The notes: generated by a model not told the origin, from the letters alone. A stretch of 62,736 nt of DNA, filler included, from Basidiobolus ranarum (GCA_040143965.1; 18 parts of 18 records of this genome joined end to end with filler, not necessarily neighbours in it), one strand, 5' to 3'; positions 16,615-52,181 are shown, counted from the whole stretch's first letter. Program-made: numbers and translations.

Positions 16615-17103
16615 TGGTCCATATAGATCTCCTCAGCAAGCTCACCATTCAAAAAAGTAGTTTTAACATCCACTTAATGTATAATAAACTGATACTTAGC
16701 TGATGTTGCTAAAATTAATCTAATTGAATTAAACTTTGCTACAGGAGCAAAAGTTTCTGTATAATCTATTCCTGATGTTTGGGAATAACCTTTGGCTATT
16801 AGTCTAACCTTATACCTATCTATATTGCCATTAGAGATGTATTTAACTTTAAACACCCATTGGCAGCCAATTGATTTTCTATCATTAGGTAAGTTGTTTA
16901 AAATCCAAGTTTGATTATCAATCAAAGCTTGGTACTCATCAGCCATTGCAGATCTCCAAAATTTCATGCAAGGGCCATTCAGGACCACTTTTACAGTCTG
17001 GGGTTCATGTATTTGAGCTGTGCAGGCATAGGCCCAATTTTGGGACTCATTGATATAGTAATCAGCACTATTTCTGATACAATGTGATCTCCTGGTTTGG
17101 GAC
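16615..17103 (-). mobile_element. Ty1/Copia reverse transcriptase fragment (pseudogenised), interrupted by a family B LTR at 17104
   Basis: AMADEYQALIDNQTW...CQWVFKVK...YKVRLIAKGYSQTSGIDYTETFAPVAK are RVT_2 motifs. In-frame stop before the MDVKT motif. Confidence 0.92.
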
Positions 17104-17493
17104 TGTTGGAAGATCTTGACATAATGGGGGTAGACTTTGAGTATTAGAAGTAACTTATGTTAGTGTGTTTTAGTGACTTTATTCTTAAGAGTATATGGTG
17201 ACTTATATAGCAGAAAAGTAATCAATTGTTTGAGATATTCAGGAGTTTGTGTAACAAGATATAATAGATAGGTGGGGGTAATAAGACATACTCGTTATAT
17301 ATATATAGAGATATTCCTATTTAGAATATAGGGGCTATAGATACATTGCTTTCTGTTTCTGATATATGTATCATAACTAAAGTTAACTATGATNNNNNNN
17401 NNNNNNNNNNNNNNNNNNNNNNNNNNNNNNNNNNNNNTTAATTAATTAANNNNNNNNNNNNNNNNNNNNNNNNNNNNNNNNNNNNNNNNNNNN

Positions 17494-19583: not shown

Positions 19584-20456
19584 AAAAAGAACAATGTGCC
19601 TTTAATGTAAATTGTCTTAATGTTAAAGAAAAATTACTAATTCAATGTTCAGGAGCTGATACTGCCAAGAAGGTATGGAAAGCCTTGGAAGACACCTACC
19701 AAATAGGTTCTGCTGCCAACAAGATGTTTCTAAGAAGACAATATTTTAACTTAAAGATGAAGCCAGGAGAAGACATTAAATCACTATTTAACAGAGTCAC
19801 TACTTTAATGGGTGAAATCAAATACATTGGAGTACCAACTACTGATCAAGATATCATAGTTACAGTTTGGAATAGCCTGCCACATTAGTTTTGGAGCCTA
19901 TTAATGGCTCTAGAATCAAGAACTGAAAATATGACCTTAAAATATATATTTTGCAGACTTCTGGATGAAGATTTACACAAATCAGGACTCAACCAAAAGA
20001 ATGAGGAAAATGCTTTAATAGGCTATGGGAAACCTTCCTATAGAGGTCAAAAGCTCTCTAAGAAGAAAAGTAACACATTGTGATTTCTGTACAAGAACTG
20101 GCAATTTAAGCAAAGATTGCTTTAATAGAATTGCAAAAGAAGAAAAACATACTGAATCTAGAAATGTGGTTATAATTGAAGATCACTTGTTCATATCTGC
20201 TCTATCTATGACTACCAACAAGAGTTCTCAGACTTGGTGTATTGATTCTGGAGCCTCCCAACATTTCACAAATGAAACACACTGGTTTATGGATTATGAA
20301 GAAATTGCAATTAGAAAGGTTTTTGTGGGAGATGACCATATGTTGGATGCTATTGGAATGGGAACAATTCAAGTCAATTTAACTGGACCTTCTGAAGATA
20401 AAGTGTATACTTTTAAACATGTACTACATGTTCTAGATATTGTCAAGAATTTAATA

Positions 20457-20887
20457 TGTCATGATTCTGATCTTGGCATACTGATCTACTGCATATGCAA
20501 CTCTTCTATTATTAGATTATGACATCATATCTACTGTGCCATCCCTTCTCGGCAATCTGGTGTCAGTTCATCCAGATTACCTTCTATGGAAGTCATGCTC
20601 TTTGGAACATTCCATGAAACCTGACCAATCATGTCATCCCACACATAGTGTATTTCCACCAAGACCTTCCATGGAAGGTCACCTGATCATCCTTACATCA
20701 TCCTTACATCATCCTTGCATCATCCCTCTTTGTATTGGTCCTTGTAGTCCCTAACACCCCAACTCTCAAACTTGCCACAGTATATTCCCTATTCAGTATA
20801 TTATGTTTCACCTTGCAATATCTATATAAGCACCATGTATTTCTTGATCAGACCTCAGTCTGATCAACACCAGTTATCAATAAAGAT
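20457..20887 (+). mobile_element. LTR family C copy inserted after Copia protease
   Basis: Starts TGTCATGATT, interrupts the Copia frame after HVLHVLDIVKNLI, and runs to the contig end. Confidence 0.7.
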
Positions 20888-38443: not shown

Positions 38444-38722
38444 CAAATCACGCTTGTCGCTGGTGGTAGAGGATTGTTTTTGTACTATTTTCTCTTCAAC
38501 TTTCATAGAATTATCTTGTTCTGAGTAGTCAGCGATTGATGATAGGACAGAGCTCACTAAAGATACATCCTCACGTTTAGTATGGCCACAGAACCATCTG
38601 CCGCACAGATCGTGCAAATCTCTCTTGTCTCCGGCTAATTCTTCGGTGCCATGACCCATAGGTAGACTTTGAGCAGCCATAGTGAAGACAGAAGAAGCAA
38701 CTAAAATGGTAGCGAATTTCAT
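38444..38722 (-). CDS. Secreted Kex2-processed repeat peptide precursor 1 (core DLHDLCGRWFCGHT), 3'-truncated
   Basis: MKF signal peptide, then KR-DLHDLCGRWFCGHT-KR (38579-38620), an acidic spacer and a second KR-DL at the contig end. The likely start is the ATG at 38722. TATATAA about 60 nt upstream. Confidence 0.9.
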
Positions 38723-38831
38723 ACTAGTATTGAAAGATACTTGGGATTGATATGATAACGGCAAACTGTCGCCTAGCTACTTATATAGCTTGGTGATCTT
38801 TTATGTTGGAGGCAAAATTTGGATCATGCGG

Positions 38832-38852
38832 AGTTGATTGATTCCCAGAATA
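38832..38852 (-). promoter_or_regulatory. Conserved upstream motif of precursor 1 (TATTCTGGGAATCAATCAACT)
   Basis: 19/21 identical to 41427-41447 upstream of precursor 3. Both lie just upstream of a TATA box. Confidence 0.55.
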
Positions 38853-40213
38853 TGTATCAGGTGATACACACTAGCACAATATGACTGAAAGTATTCTACT
38901 TGCTATATTTCTTTACCAAATTTGTAATATTAAACTTGATCAAAAATCATTCATGTTCGTTGGCTTATAGTCTCTATCTTCCTGTATCTGAACACGCTTC
39001 TGAATGATTATCCCAGTCTTAAACTTGTGATGTAGATCAGGCAACATGTTAGAATTGGATTCTCTACCCTTATTACTTTTCACATGCTTTCGAGACAGCA
39101 TAACCCAAGAAAACTAAATCCAGTGACGAATGTTTGCTTAATTTACAACATTAAGAAAATTATTACAATATTCAATTGAACAAAAAAATCTCCAAAATAC
39201 TTCAGTGTGGTTGAAACAAAGGCAAGAGACAGAGGAGTACAGGTCAGCGAATAAAATTCTCCGAACTATTACAATTTAGTTAAGATCAAGACAAGAAATA
39301 ACTTAGGGTTAGGGTCAGGGAAGGATTGGGTACAGGCCATGTGTATGATTAAATATTCAAAAAAAACCGGCAATAGGACTGCCAACTAATAGTTAGTTCA
39401 ATAGCTGAAAGGGGCTGTACTTTTGCTTATTGAAGACGGAGGCTTTGTACAGTCTGAGTAAGAGCAGTAAAAACTGACAATAGGCTGATGAATTTCGTAA
39501 TTATATTTGTATAATACTTGAGATTTATGTTGCAATAGAATTGCTTGAAGACTCTTGTTCTATCACCTACTTACATAATTTAGTGACCATATCTCGACCA
39601 AAATACATATGATTTGTGATGCTCAATCGCTTTATTCCCAGAGCCTTAGGTTGTACAGGCTAGGTTAGATGGCTCCTGATTCTAGTGAATATCTTGCTAG
39701 TACCGTGGGATATTTCAGAAAATAACTTTCGGTCATTTGGTTGCTTATTGACCCTAGTGAGTATTTCTTAGAAGGATTCTCAGTTGATGGATTCCAAGAA
39801 TATTAAGTGACACTAGATCGATATCGTTGATTTTATGACGTTAGAACTGGTTGATCCCTGCAGTGCCATCGATATTGGCCATACTAATATTAAATCAGCT
39901 CAAATATCTAGAGTATTTGTTTAAATGTAAAAAATTGAAGAGTCCATATGTAGAGTTATAGTAAGTGATAGAATATTTATTGATTCAATTATTTGCCAAA
40001 TAGAGTACAAAATTACAACAGTATTGTTGAAACAAGGGTAGGATAACTGACTCCGGGTCAGTGATGAATGCCACGATAAATTAGTAGGAAATATGTAGGA
40101 TATATCAACTGAACTAACCATTTGATGAATTGCAAAAGTCGCACTCACAAACAAATTCACACTATTGAAATGAAAATGTGTTAAAGTCATCAATTTTGCA
40201 AATATTCTACACT

Positions 40214-40594
40214 TCACCTACGTAAATGTTTCATATTTCTCTTTAGCTCAGACCTGGTATAATCACGTAGAGCAATGCCTCGCTTCTTAGTGTGGCCACA
40301 AAACCATCTACCACAAAGGTCGTGTAGATCCCGCTTGTCGTTAGTAGTGGATGACTGTTCATGTGCTTCGGTCTTGATGAGAGCTGTTGACTCAGTATTG
40401 GTGGCTGCTGCATCAGTTAGACTCGTTAGAGATATTTCCTCACCACGTTTAGTATGACCACAGAACCATCTACCGCACAAATCATGCAAGTCTCTCTTGT
40501 TTCCAGCCAATTCATTGAAGGTCTGACCCGTAGGTAGACCCTGAACCAGTAGAGTAAGAATAACAGAAGTAGCAATCAGACTGGAGAGTTTCAT
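40214..40594 (-). CDS. Secreted Kex2-processed repeat peptide precursor 2 (complete, 126 aa, two cores)
   Basis: Signal peptide MKLSSLIATSVILTLLVQG, two identical KR-flanked cores (40451-40492 and 40289-40330), basic tail. TATAAAA upstream. Confidence 0.93.
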   Translation of the reverse strand: MKLSSLIATSVILTLLVQGLPTGQTFNELAGNKRDLHDLCGRWFCGHTKRGEEISLTSLTDAAATNTESTALIKTEAHEQSSTTNDKRDLHDLCGRWFCGHTKKRGIALRDYTRSELKRNMKHLRR

Positions 40595-41426
40595 AGTTGT
40601 AATGGAGTGATTCTTGATTCAATGTTATTAAAGTAAAGAAGTGAGCTGTAGATATTTATATCCCTTTTGAAGACATCTTAGAATGAGATAGTGTGACCGT
40701 TAACGTTTAATGGGCTCATTTGCAGAGTATACTATACTTCGAACACATATCAGTTTGATTAGTGCATTTAAACCAGAATAGACCCGGTTATATTAACATA
40801 CTTTCAGCCTGTGTACAGCCGATCATTAATTCAGAGTATTCATGATTGATTATGTATGGAGATATCTTGCTAGGCTCACACGAAGAATTACGCTTCTCTT
40901 CCTTATATGTGCGCAAAACCATCTACCGTACAGAACATAGTGATAGTTCATCTAATATTTTACAAGCATTGACTTATTGTAGATACTTTTATGCTGTCGG
41001 TGGCATATATCGAAGTGGAAAATGGCTATGCATGGGGAAAAACCAATCCGGAAATTCTAGGGAGATTAACATGTTTTATCCTCATATTGTATAAAATGTC
41101 AATTTGAGTTATTCTAGGAATTCAACAACTGAGAACCTAGATGACACTGTCTCATTGTATTTCTACTAAGAAATTCTCGGTAAATTCAATAAGTAGCCAA
41201 ATTACCAAAACATACTTTAGAGATGAAGTTATCGAAATATTCACAGTTGATAATGATGGATAGTCTTCACTCTGGATTTATTTGTTATATATATATATGT
41301 ATACAGCCAATTCCATAATCTACGTTTTGCGAATTACCTGCGATGGAACAGGTCTTATGGCTGTACTCGATTTTTCACGAAACCTTAACCTGCCCCATCC
41401 ATTTACGGATTGTACTACCCAATTTG

Positions 41427-41447
41427 TATTCTGGGAATCAGCCAACT
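41427..41447 (+). promoter_or_regulatory. Conserved upstream motif of precursor 3 (TATTCTGGGAATCAGCCAACT)
   Basis: Counterpart of 38832-38852. The flanking promoter sequence does not align obviously. Confidence 0.55.
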
Positions 41448-41554
41448 GAGAAGTACTTCGAGATATTGACTAAACTATAAAAGTAACTAGGTATCAGAGT
41501 ACTATTCTTCACACTGATCTGTTACAATATCAATTACAATCCGCTTTCTGAGTC

Positions 41555-41833
41555 ATGAAATTCTACACCATAGCTATTGCTTCTACTGTTGTATCACTGG
41601 CTGCTCAAAGTCTACCTATGGGCCAAAACACCCAAGTAATAGCAGGAGACAAGAGAGATTTACACGACCTGTGCGGCAGATGGTTCTGTGGCCATACTAA
41701 ACGTGAGGATGCATCTTTAGTAAGCTCTGTCCTATCATCAATCGCTGACTACTCAGAACAAGATAAGTCTATGAAAGTTGAAGAGAAAATAGTACAAAAA
41801 CAATCCTCTACCACCAGCGACAAGCGTGATTTG
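41555..41833 (+). CDS. Secreted Kex2-processed repeat peptide precursor 3, 3'-truncated
   Basis: Signal peptide, KR-core-KR at 41657-41698, spacer nearly identical to precursor 1, second KR-DL at the contig end. TATAAAAG at about 41476. Confidence 0.9.
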
Positions 41834-49509: not shown

Positions 49510-52181
49510 ATTGCATTATCCATTATACTCATGTGGAATTTACTTAGAAGTTCTCAGATATATAGATTCTTAAAACTTGTCTTGGAAGCCCCAGACTTTG
49601 CACACATGATGCTAGGACCTTGCTTAATAAATCCTACATGTTGGTTTGCTTACATCTTGACAAAACTATAAATGTGAACTTTTAACTGAAAAAATCAATA
49701 AGTGAAAACCACCAATTTCTCTAATTCTCCAAACTACCCCAAACATGCTCCCAAATATTTTAATGGGTTATAAACCCCAAGCTTGCTCTCTCTGTAGTGT
49801 CTACTTCTCAAACTTATAGAACTTTTCCCTCTTCTTAAAAATTGGATGGAACTAACTATCAAGATTGAAAAATTAAAATAAGAATGCTGCTGCAAGAAAA
49901 AGGACTTTGGGACACTGTTGTAGGAGAAAAAAACAATGCAAAACTATCTGAAATCAAAGTTTTAATCCAGGTTAAAAAAGAACAAAGTGCCGTCACAAAA
50001 TTTATCTTAATGTTAAAGACAAATTGCAATTCAATGTTCAAGGGCCAAGACTGCCAAGAAGGTATGGAAAGCCTTGGAAGACACCTTCCAAACAAGTTCT
50101 GCTGCCAAAAAGATGGTTCCAAGAAGACAATTGTTTAAGTTAAAGATGAAGCCAGGAGAAGACATTTAATCACCAATTAATAGAGTTACTATTTAAGTAG
50201 ATGAAATGGAATGCATTGGAGTACCTACTACTGATCAAGATATCATTGTTACAGTCTTGAATAGCCGGCCACACAAGTTTCAGAGTCTAGTAATGGCTCT
50301 AGAATCAAGAAATGAAAATATGACCTTAAATTATGTATTTGGCAGACTTCTGGATGAAGATTTATGCAAATTGGGATCCAACCAAAAGAATGAAGAAAAT
50401 GCATCAATGGGCTATGTGAAACCTTCCTATAAAGGCCAAACACACTTTAAGAAGAAAGATAACACATTCTGTGATTACTGCACAAGAACTGGCCCTCTAA
50501 GCAAAGATTGCCTCAAAAGAATTGAAAAAGAAGATAAACATACTGAATCTGGAAATATGACTACAACAGAAGATCACATGTTCATATCTGCTCTATCAAT
50601 GACTGTCAACAAGGATAGTCAGATGTGGTATATTGATGCTGGAGCCTCCCAACATTTCTCAAATAAAAACCATTGGTTTGTGGATTATGAAAAATCCCAA
50701 TTAGAAAGGATTTCATGGGAGATGACTACTCTTTGGAAACTATTGGAATGGGAACAATTCTAGTCAATTTAACTGGAGCTTATGACCAGAAAGTGTATAA
50801 TCTTAAAGGTGTGCTACATGTTCCAGATATTGCCAAGAATTTAGTATCTGAAAGCAAGGCCACCTTTGAAGAGCCAAAATTCAATTTTGGTAAGACAGGA
50901 TGTGCCATCACTGATCAAAATGGGATTATTTAACTTTGGGAGAACAGGATCAGAGTATACACAAACCTACATTTATTCCAAGAGTTTTATGCTTAAGCAT
51001 AAGTTATTACAATCAAAAAACTGTTCAATTATGGAAGAAGAGATGTGGCCATGTTGGATTTGATTCATTGAGATAAATGATCACAAATTGCCTAATTTCT
51101 GGAATTCAAATTAACCAACCAACCAAAATGGAAATTTGTGAGGGTTATATATAGAGAAAACAAGTCAGGCAACTATTAAAGAGCTCTGCTTTAATCAAAT
51201 CTGTCAAAAAATTGGATCTAATTCATTCAGATTTGTGTGGACCTATGCAAAATTTATCTTTAGGTAGAAAATCATGTTTAATCACATTTATTGGCTATTA
51301 TGGAAGATACACTTGGGCCTACTTTATGGAAAGACAAGAACAAGCTATCACCATATTCAGAGATTTTAAAACACTTGTGGAGACTGAAACTGGAACTAAA
51401 GTCAGGAAAATAAGTACTGATAATGATGCAGAATATACTTCAACAATATTTAAGCACTTTTACAAAGTTCACAGAATTAAGTAAGAAAATACTTTTCCCT
51501 ATTCACCTCAACAAAATGGAGTTGCTGGCAGAGCTAACAGGATTAGGATAGAAATGGCAAGATCTGTGATAATTGCACAAAATTTATCTCATCACTTTTG
51601 GGCAGAATCTGTTGCAACAGCTGTATATCAGAAGAATAGGAGTTTTACTAGAAGTCTGTCTATATCTACACCATATCAAGCTTGGTTAGGAGTTGATCCC
51701 TGTGTAAAACATTTGAGGATCTTTGGATGTATTGTTTATGCCAAGATTATGACCAAAAATTGGTCTAAATTTGATCCAAAAAGTAAGAAATGAATATTCT
51801 TGGGTCATTGTACTCAACTAAGCCCTACAGACTTTACAATACCAAATGTTCAAAGTTAATCAAGCCCAGCAATGTTTTGCTTAATGAAAATGAAACATTT
51901 TTACCCAACATTATCTCAGATGATGATAAAAGCAATTTTCTCCTGATCCAATCATTCAAATTGATCCAAACCAAAACAATGAAGGAAATAGCATTCCTGT
52001 GAGCACTTCAACCAAAATCTGCCTACTGATGTACCCAATACAATGCCAGAAGCTATAGTACCCTTATCACAAACCAGGAGGTCAAATTGGATCAAAAATA
52101 GCCCTAATTACTATATCAATGAGTTCCAAAATTGGGCCTATGCCTGCACAGCTCAAATACATGAACCCCAGACTGTAAAAA
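49510..52181 (+). mobile_element. Ty1/Copia element: LTR A, degenerate PBS, gag, protease, integrase (decayed)
   Basis: WYIDAGASQHF, DLIHSDLCGPM, STDNDAEY, PQQNGVA and FWAESVATAVY..NR occur in Copia order. Interrupted by LTR D at 52182. Confidence 0.93.

Follow-up and report, generated by a model that had tools for sequence, protein, structure and literature searches.

The genome of the fungus Basidiobolus ranarum contains a family of small genes, at least 23 in number, whose products look like secretory prepropeptides built around a repeated 14-residue core, DLHDLCGRWFCGHT. We propose that these precursors are cut at dibasic sites and release the core as a peptide closed by a disulfide ring; judged from the sequences, this is probably how they are processed, though the case is some way from certain. 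The family was found in a window of 62.7 kb (the whole stretch of DNA that was analysed), which is not one locus but 18 contigs of about 3.4 kb each, linked by N-TTAATTAATTAA-N spacers; the family genes of the window are confined to one of these contigs (positions 38444-41833, 3390 bp, 37% G+C). An earlier note on this DNA had described three paralogous open reading frames (ORFs) on that contig, in the orientation -, -, +, each with a signal-peptide-like start, a pro-region, KR-core-KR, an acidic spacer and a further KR-core. All of this is present, and our recount likewise gives four complete and two cut cores, with the first core at residues 35-48 in genes A, B and C. Those parts of the note's reading that can be tested in this way hold; where it fell short was in scale, for its cluster of three genes is part of a family that numbers 23 or more, and the contig also holds a decayed fourth copy.

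When 5.8 billion proteins were searched by a word index, 21 matched, all of them B. ranarum hypothetical proteins, with gene B at the top of the list. These 21 database proteins and genes A and C make up the 23 precursors considered here, in which we counted 43 complete cores. Thirty-two of the 43 are identical to the consensus, KR directly precedes the core in every case, and a dibasic site (KR, KKR, RKR or RR) follows it in 42. All 20 full-length precursors carry two cores, which bears out the claim that one invariant core is multiplied both within and between genes. The first residues after KR are D-L in 42 cores and N-L in the other, so the X-A or X-P dipeptides on which Ste13 acts are missing, as the earlier note had said. 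At the N-terminus, 22 of the 23 precursors begin with M-(K/R) and a hydrophobic run that ends in (V/A/T/I)-(Q/E/H)-(S/G) before L-P, the remaining one being an N-terminally short gene model; signal peptides were judged by a heuristic, based on a hydrophobic run (the Kyte-Doolittle means observed were 1.0-2.3) and on small residues in positions -3 and -1, ahead of L-P. The spacer between the cores is indeed acidic (5-10 D+E against 1-4 K+R in 20 spacers), and ranges in length from 26 to 46 residues. Six family genes with consecutive locus tags lie on one 7692-bp contig and five on another of 6667 bp, and 18 of the 21 members in the database sit on contigs no longer than 7.7 kb. Since the assembly is broken up by this family, leaving most of its members on short contigs, the true copy number is probably higher.

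Evidence that the core matters comes from the way in which the genes have diverged. Among the four complete cores of the window 12 of 42 nucleotide sites are variable, and all 12 differences are synonymous, where 19% of random single changes in the core would be expected to be so. By the Nei-Gojobori method the KR-core-KR segment shows no nonsynonymous differences in any of the three gene pairs, against 2, 5 and 7 synonymous ones, whereas the ratio of nonsynonymous to synonymous differences per site (pN/pS) is 0.70-0.98 in the signal and pro region and 0.54-0.56 in the spacer. Across the precursors (the 20 full-length rows of the 23) mean pairwise identity is 0.94-0.95 in both cores, compared with 0.40-0.53 in signal, pro-region, spacer and tail, the spacer lying at 0.40. 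The decayed copy on the window contig, which has acquired a stop codon, has also lost core residues, which argues for selection on the peptide in those copies that are intact. The unit that is conserved is the peptide and not the protein, with strong purifying selection acting on the core.

Comparison with a second species leads to the same view. When 1.84 billion representative proteins were searched exhaustively with a HMMER profile, only seven matched, all in Basidiobolus, and no relative outside the genus was among them; a search of this kind had been proposed in the earlier note. Five relatives (P0022, P0023, P0024, P0026 and P0029) come from Basidiobolus meristosporus CBS 931.73; their gene models hold one or two cores, P0029 having the same two-core layout as in B. 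ranarum. All seven of their cores read DLHDFCGGWFCGH, with Gly where B. ranarum has Arg; each is preceded by KR, and V-K-R follows six of the seven. Their spacers and tails are unrelated to those of B. ranarum but the core is conserved, which again identifies the core as the selected unit. There is, in addition, a second subfamily with members in both species, P0025, P0027 and P0028 (K7432_009182 and K7432_000260 in B. ranarum, K493DRAFT_89725 in B. meristosporus), in which a core FWNMRYYCGGWVCxH follows KR or RR and lies between dibasic sites; one fully conserved copy stands at the extreme C-terminus and the internal copies are degenerate. P0025 is the only member of either group with three cores. 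Profile comparison with hhalign links this subfamily to the main family with a probability of 95.6% (E 1.1e-8), and the element common to all Basidiobolus members is C-G-(G/R)-W-x-C-x-H. The second subfamily appears to be the older of the two. Two B. ranarum precursors, P0019 (K7432_012431) and P0020 (K7432_014235), have a ring in which Gly replaces Arg, and their tail is longer; at its extreme C-terminus stands an extra half-core, ..LDRFC(G/E)GWFC, without a preceding KR. Through this additional ...FCGGWFC end they bridge the two subfamilies. As a whole the family, with its 23 or more genes in B. ranarum, is restricted to the genus and conserved between two Basidiobolus species.

Searches beyond the genus were otherwise negative or gave matches that we rejected. 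A Pfam hmmscan of four precursors, with E values up to 10 admitted, put no family at cut-off on the B. ranarum proteins, and MF_alpha (PF04648) and MF_alpha_N (PF05436) were not listed at all. Short sub-threshold pieces of DUF7586, zf-RING_13, Prok-RING_2 and Int_N fall over the Cys/His pattern; zf-RING_13 (PF17977) scores 14.9-21.3 bits on B. ranarum proteins against a cut-off of 25, and the 27.1 bits that it reaches in P0029 arise only by summing two fragments, at profile positions 16-37 of 68, so that no single stretch passes. As this match reflects the C-x4-C-x-H spacing in a secreted precursor, we do not regard it as the domain. Among solved structures the best match by sequence is a C2H2 zinc finger at chance level (E 0.33). 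In the ESM Atlas all feature matches are below the bar of 0.9, with alpha-factor precursors at rank 4 (score 0.79), and all structure matches have a template modelling (TM) score of 0.35 or less. In 185,579 prokaryote genomes the pattern matched 120 times, and one of these matches, in the actinobacterium Pedococcus, passed tblastn (L001 4992-5210); it is a CGRWFCGH in an alternative frame of a 1036-residue helicase-like ORF in a high-GC genome, and is therefore best attributed to chance. As an aside, this match shows that the eight-residue motif CGRWFCGH is not diagnostic by itself. Metagenome contigs gave 82 pattern matches and no relatives. None of the papers searched contains the core strings, and searches on Basidiobolus with Kex2, pheromone and secreted peptides returned no description of the family. 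The earlier note had not recognised the core as a described peptide, and neither Pfam, solved structures nor the searched literature offers a match; most likely, on this evidence, the peptide is new and a genus-restricted addition to the known class of dibasic-processed fungal peptide precursors.

The peptide would be made in several steps. A signal peptide of about 19 residues, ending in (V/A)-Q-(S/G) before L-P, would bring the precursor into the endoplasmic reticulum (ER). In the late secretory pathway a kexin-type protease specific for dibasic sites would then cleave after each KR, and a Kex1-type carboxypeptidase would remove the trailing K/R. Each B. ranarum precursor would in this way yield two 14-mers, and the acidic, Ser/Thr-rich spacer and the C-terminal tail would be discarded. 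A disulfide would most likely form between Cys6 and Cys11, giving a ring of six residues (C-G-R-W-F-C) with a Trp-Phe pair on display, and cleavage would expose a free Asp-Leu-His N-terminus, which fits the amino-terminal Cu- and Ni-binding (ATCUN) pattern. We recomputed the masses of the 14-mer as 1658.708 Da reduced and 1656.693 Da oxidised, in agreement with the earlier values; for the B. meristosporus peptide the predicted values are 1591.634 Da reduced and 1589.618 Da oxidised. Conservation is as strict at the dibasic sites as in the core, nothing seems to constrain the spacer, and B. meristosporus has models with a single core, all of which argue that the core is the product. The second subfamily lacks the ATCUN motif, from which it would follow that the ring is the older functional element.

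The layout of these precursors has close analogues in other fungi, beginning with prepro-alpha-factor. The D-K-R before the Basidiobolus cut resembles the alpha-factor leader. In Saccharomyces cerevisiae MF(ALPHA)1 is reported to have four repeats and MF(ALPHA)2 two cores, like the Basidiobolus precursors (PMC6339444). The Basidiobolus proteins differ in matching neither MF_alpha nor MF_alpha_N, in lacking the Ste13 X-A dipeptides and in carrying two Cys four residues apart in the core; there are also at least 23 genes as opposed to two, in a lineage of the Zoopagomycota, and any role in mating is conjectural. A second comparison is with the KEX2-processed repeat proteins, or KEPs (Le Marquer et al. 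2019, PMC6339444; Umemura 2020, PMC7329392), which are described as secreted proteins with repeats between KR, RR or KK. Near-identical repeated peptides bounded by dibasic sites are found here too, and an ER signal peptide is present by our heuristic in 22 of the 23 rows. Both KEP pipelines, as their authors describe them, require at least three repeats (PMC6339444, PMC7329392), and the B. ranarum precursors, with two cores each, fall under the cut-off of both catalogues; the multiplicity of the Basidiobolus family, in contrast to that of catalogued KEPs, stems from tandem gene arrays. The alpha-factor or KEP architecture that the earlier note had regarded as established is thus matched in layout, but not in Pfam family or in repeat number. 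Of the strains that Umemura surveyed, B. meristosporus is given the most KEPs, 43, and that paper describes one KEP type, S-3, as confined to Basidiobolus and rich in Tyr (PMC7329392). Tyr occurs in none of the 43 cores, and the Basidiobolus core probably represents a different type, a comparison made with the text description of S-3. We conclude that the family would work in the manner of the alpha-factor and KEP families without formally belonging to them.

Two further systems are similar in part. The two-Cys alpha-type pheromones of filamentous Ascomycota, and a look-alike in Trichosporon oleaginosus, are described as KR-released peptides of 10-14 residues with two Cys and aromatic residues, examples being RFCHLPGQGCSK and QSWGGCGGRGTPCW (PMC6339444). 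In the examples given there the Cys spacing is 6-7, whereas in the Basidiobolus core it is 4, and the core has neither a motif of the G-Q-P-C-W type nor the Ste13 signature; the exhaustive profile search, which matched Basidiobolus only, showed no sequence relation to these pheromones. Ece1 of Candida albicans is likewise a secreted polyprotein of an opportunist, cut at KR by Kex2 and Kex1 to give a bioactive peptide, candidalysin (PMC6339444). The Basidiobolus precursors differ from Ece1 in that they repeat one short ring peptide. Candidalysin itself is a longer, helical toxin that damages membranes.

As to function, we tentatively propose that the 14-mer is a diffusible bulk ligand for one fixed target, and most probably a self, mating or developmental signal that acts through a receptor. 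The occurrence of an identical peptide in dozens of copies suggests both one fixed target and a need for dose, and we infer that this dose would be raised by tandem gene arrays and not by many repeats per gene. Since the 14-mer is small and slightly acidic (two Asp, one Arg), it does not resemble a cationic membrane-active peptide. Mating-pheromone receptors are described as the one family of G protein-coupled receptors (GPCRs) that is conserved across the fungal kingdom (PMC6733946), and Basidiobolus zygospores are said to arise by selfing or outcrossing (PMC7466969). A role as a peptide pheromone is thus conceivable, but unsupported. The ring of C-x-(R)-W-F-C has the same size as those of urotensin II and oxytocin, and its aromatic and basic groups recall the pharmacophore of vertebrate ring hormones. 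It is a more doubtful idea that the 14-mer is the first peptide signal from a zygomycete-grade fungus, acting as a pheromone or autoinducer through a pheromone-type GPCR or else as a ligand in the vertebrate host; in a variant of that idea, it may instead be the first ribosomal, protease-activated copper-binding (ATCUN) peptide of a fungus. What probability remains would fall to other targets, for example in gut microbes or the host.

Several facts weigh against the reading of the 14-mer as a released ring peptide with a signalling role. Eleven of the 43 cores deviate from the consensus; one core, in P0014, has no downstream dibasic site, and another, in P0012, has lost the Trp and one Cys. 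The disulfide is assumed, and the H-x2-C-x4-C-x-H spacing could hold metal with free thiols. A survey of 154 subtilisin-like proteases in six Entomophthoromycotina, B. meristosporus among them, lists only two S8B kexins, both in Conidiobolus incongruus (PMC6169396). On the other side, and in favour of the proposed cleavage, KEX2 is reported to be missing, among 250 fungi, only in Microsporidia and five Dikarya species (PMC6339444). Finally, and again against the reading, a total of at least 43 cores is very high for a pheromone, and would equally suit a stoichiometric metal binder, a toxin or a structural peptide.

The first of these options is the strongest competitor, although we still consider it unlikely: the released 14-mer would be a secreted binder of Cu or Ni through H2N-Asp-Leu-His, which would serve to capture or detoxify metal or, with copper, to kill microbes in gut and dung. 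The ATCUN motif is H2N-X-X-His, and natural examples of the form Asp-X-His are cited in albumin (DAH/DTH), hepcidin (DTH) and histatin-5 (DSH) (PMC7701195). Hepcidin-25 (DTH...) and histatin-5 (DSH...) have the H2N-X-X-His N-terminus that the predicted mature 14-mer would fit, and hepcidin, like the 14-mer, also carries cysteines (PMC7701195, PMC7232333); these are animal peptides, without homology to the Basidiobolus core. In the 23 B. ranarum and five B. meristosporus rows D35, L36 and H37 vary little or not at all, His standing at core position 3 in 42 of 43 and 7 of 7 cores, respectively, although a free N-terminus depends on the proposed cut. The motif would arise only through that cut, which would explain why the KR-D junction is so strict. 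There are six potential metal ligands in the 14-mer (two Asp, two His and two Cys), the precursors make weak partial matches to zinc-binding RING-like profiles, and a high gene dose, with its 43 or more cores, fits a stoichiometric role. Against the metal binder stands the second subfamily, which has no His3 and no ATCUN motif and yet keeps the ring and the His that follows it; the oldest element would then be the ring and not the metal site. The P0016 core has Arg in place of His3. We also know of no ribosomal peptide metallophore in fungi, and count this against the metal binder.

Quite improbable, in our assessment, is that the precursors belong to a system of peptides that are made on ribosomes and modified after translation (RiPPs), in which the KR-flanked core would be tailored, by Trp, His or Cys cross-links beyond a disulfide, into a cyclic toxin resembling ustiloxin or phomopsin. 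The logic of the precursor is the same, since the dikaritins (ustiloxin, phomopsin, asperipin) are also made from a signal peptide and cores between Kex2 sites (PMC7329392); Basidiobolus is described as unusually rich in secondary-metabolite genes (PMC7466969; bioRxiv 10.1101/2025.03.31.646025), and the core is rich in the reactive side chains of Cys, Trp and His. Dikaritin cores, however, are described as having 4-6 residues centred on Tyr (the YxIx type) and as needing DUF3328 (UstYa) oxidases encoded nearby, and Tyr, the residue that is cross-linked in ustiloxin, phomopsin and asperipin (PMC7329392), is absent from all 43 B. ranarum cores. In Table 1 of the KEP survey, no DUF3328 gene is given among the nearest 15 genes for any of the 185 Zoopagomycota KEPs (PMC7329392). 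The neighbourhoods available to us point the same way, if weakly, given how short the contigs are: the consecutive locus tags of the six-gene and five-gene contigs cover precursors only, and the four further ORFs on the window contig (53-98 residues) have no Pfam match.

We regard as very improbable an unprocessed secreted protein, of about 105 residues when mature, in which the CGRWFC motifs pair by disulfides between the repeats and the KR sites are incidental, the whole acting as an effector or wall protein. Four Cys per protein could make two such bridges, and the one protease survey mentioned above lists no kexin for B. meristosporus (PMC6169396). An AlphaFold model of gene B, made with the 23-row alignment, speaks for the contrary: it has a mean predicted local distance difference test (pLDDT) of 51.7 and a predicted TM score (pTM) of 0.25, both of low confidence, with a signal-peptide helix at residues 3-19 and a disordered spacer (residues 46-87) below a pLDDT of 50, and hence no globular fold and no sign of a folded two-repeat domain. 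A protein of this kind is also hard to reconcile with a spacer that varies freely in length and sequence, with the single-core gene models of B. meristosporus, with dibasic sites that are kept like the core itself (43 of 43 upstream, 42 of 43 downstream), or with the second subfamily, where the core stands at the extreme C-terminus after KR or RR. That there is no functional product at all, the family being either annotation noise from a fragmented assembly or some repetitive or selfish piece of DNA, might be suggested by the short contigs of 18 of the 21 database members, by the ends of the window contig, which are assembly breaks inside the repeat, and by the annotation of every member as a hypothetical protein, but is extremely unlikely given that all 12 variable core sites are synonymous (with a pN/pS of 0 for the core and of 0.54-0.98 for the flanks), that the core is conserved between two species, that the only copy with a stop codon is one that has lost core residues, and that the contig at 38444-41833 has no DNA in common with the other 17 contigs of the window.

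The released ring peptide that we favour would be of interest for several reasons. To our knowledge, fungal peptide signals are known almost only from Dikarya. Zygomycete lineages are known for trisporoid pheromones, which are not peptides, and the literature searched turned up no peptide signals for Zoopagomycota. Here, one short peptide is kept near letter-perfect over dozens of genes in a fungus of amphibian and reptile guts that is occasionally a human pathogen, and the family stands out by its invariance, its copy number, its putative Cys ring and the ATCUN-type N-terminus that a protease is predicted to create. The published KEP catalogues have a blind spot for such families, dosed by arrays and with two cores per gene. 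The predicted exact mass makes the 14-mer directly searchable, and it is cheap to synthesise; should it turn out to bind metal, to act as a signal or to be aimed at the host, it would provide an experimental handle on the biology of Basidiobolus.

The positions of the family genes and of the elements around them are collected in Table 1. Gene B is in the database as K7432_016167, a hypothetical protein of B. ranarum (identity 100%, with 98% of the query covered). The public model of this gene has 125 residues and ends ..MKHLL, and the uninterrupted ORF has 126 and ends ..MKHLRR; it may be that the annotation assumes a small 3' intron or another end. The tail that follows core 2 in B. ranarum retains the pattern (K/R)KRS(V/I)xLR(D/N)xLRS, which AlphaFold models as a helix (pLDDT about 70).

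Table 1. Family genes, cores and upstream elements on the window contig, in coordinates of the whole window
Feature	Position	Strand	Remarks
Gene A, partial precursor, 93 codons	38444..38722	-	truncated at contig end after second DKRDL
Gene A, N-terminal regions			residues 1-19 signal-peptide-like; residues 20-34 pro-region with terminal KR
Gene A, core 1	38579..38620	-	residues 35-48, DLHDLCGRWFCGHT; KR on either side
TATA-like box of gene A	38780..38787	-	TATATAAG; 65 nt upstream of ATG; read from sequence
Shared upstream element, gene A	38839-38852	-	TATTCTGGGAATCA
Gene B, complete two-core precursor, 126 aa	40214..40594	-	
Gene B, core 2	40289..40330	-	residues 89-102, then KKR and a 21-residue tail
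Gene B, core 1	40451..40492	-	residues 35-48
TATA-like box of gene B	40653..40660	-	TATAAATA; 66 nt upstream of ATG; read from sequence
Decayed fourth copy	40862..41008	-	remains of a spacer end, core 2 and a tail, ..YGRWFCAHIRKRSVILR..; located between B and C
Shared upstream element, gene C	41427-41440	+	TATTCTGGGAATCA
TATA-like box of gene C	41476..41483	+	TATAAAAG; 79 nt upstream of ATG; read from sequence
Gene C, partial precursor, 93 codons	41555..41833	+	truncated at contig end, same point as gene A
Gene C, core 1	41657..41698	+	residues 35-48

Genes A and C both end after DKRDL, in which D-L are the first two residues of the second core. The two ends of the contig are inverted near-copies of each other, 175 of the 180 terminal nucleotides of A and C being identical. 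Both ends break exactly where the repeated core DNA starts, as is typical of short-read assemblers at a high-copy repeat. We considered and rejected a palindromic assembly artefact as the origin of A and C, because the copies are 90% identical over 279 nucleotides and not identical, and because no palindrome extends through the contig's interior; A and C have also diverged in their promoters and 5' parts, which marks them as distinct genes. A degenerate DNA pattern for CGRWFCGH finds five sites in the window and none in 100 shuffles. The fifth of these sites is the decayed copy, which is absent from the earlier note. This copy has an in-frame stop and the core changes C->Y, G->A and T->I, with an RKRSVILR tail that is still recognisable, and is evidence of birth-and-death turnover within the array.

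Each of genes A, B and C has its own TATA-like box 65-79 nt upstream, which suggests that they are separate transcription units. Genes A and C also have in common a stretch of 14 nucleotides about 130 nt 5' of the ATG, which includes the palindrome-like TTCTGGGAA, where gene B has only TATTCTGG, at -186; this stretch may be a common regulatory site of A and C. Elsewhere in the window, other contigs carry fragments of copia-type long terminal repeat (LTR) retrotransposons, at 16677-17159 (-), 20022-20519 (+) and 50197-50760 (+), which were recognised by matches to RVT_2 (E 1.3e-22), Pol_BBD (E 4.5e-20) and Retrotran_gag_2 (E 3.8e-07).

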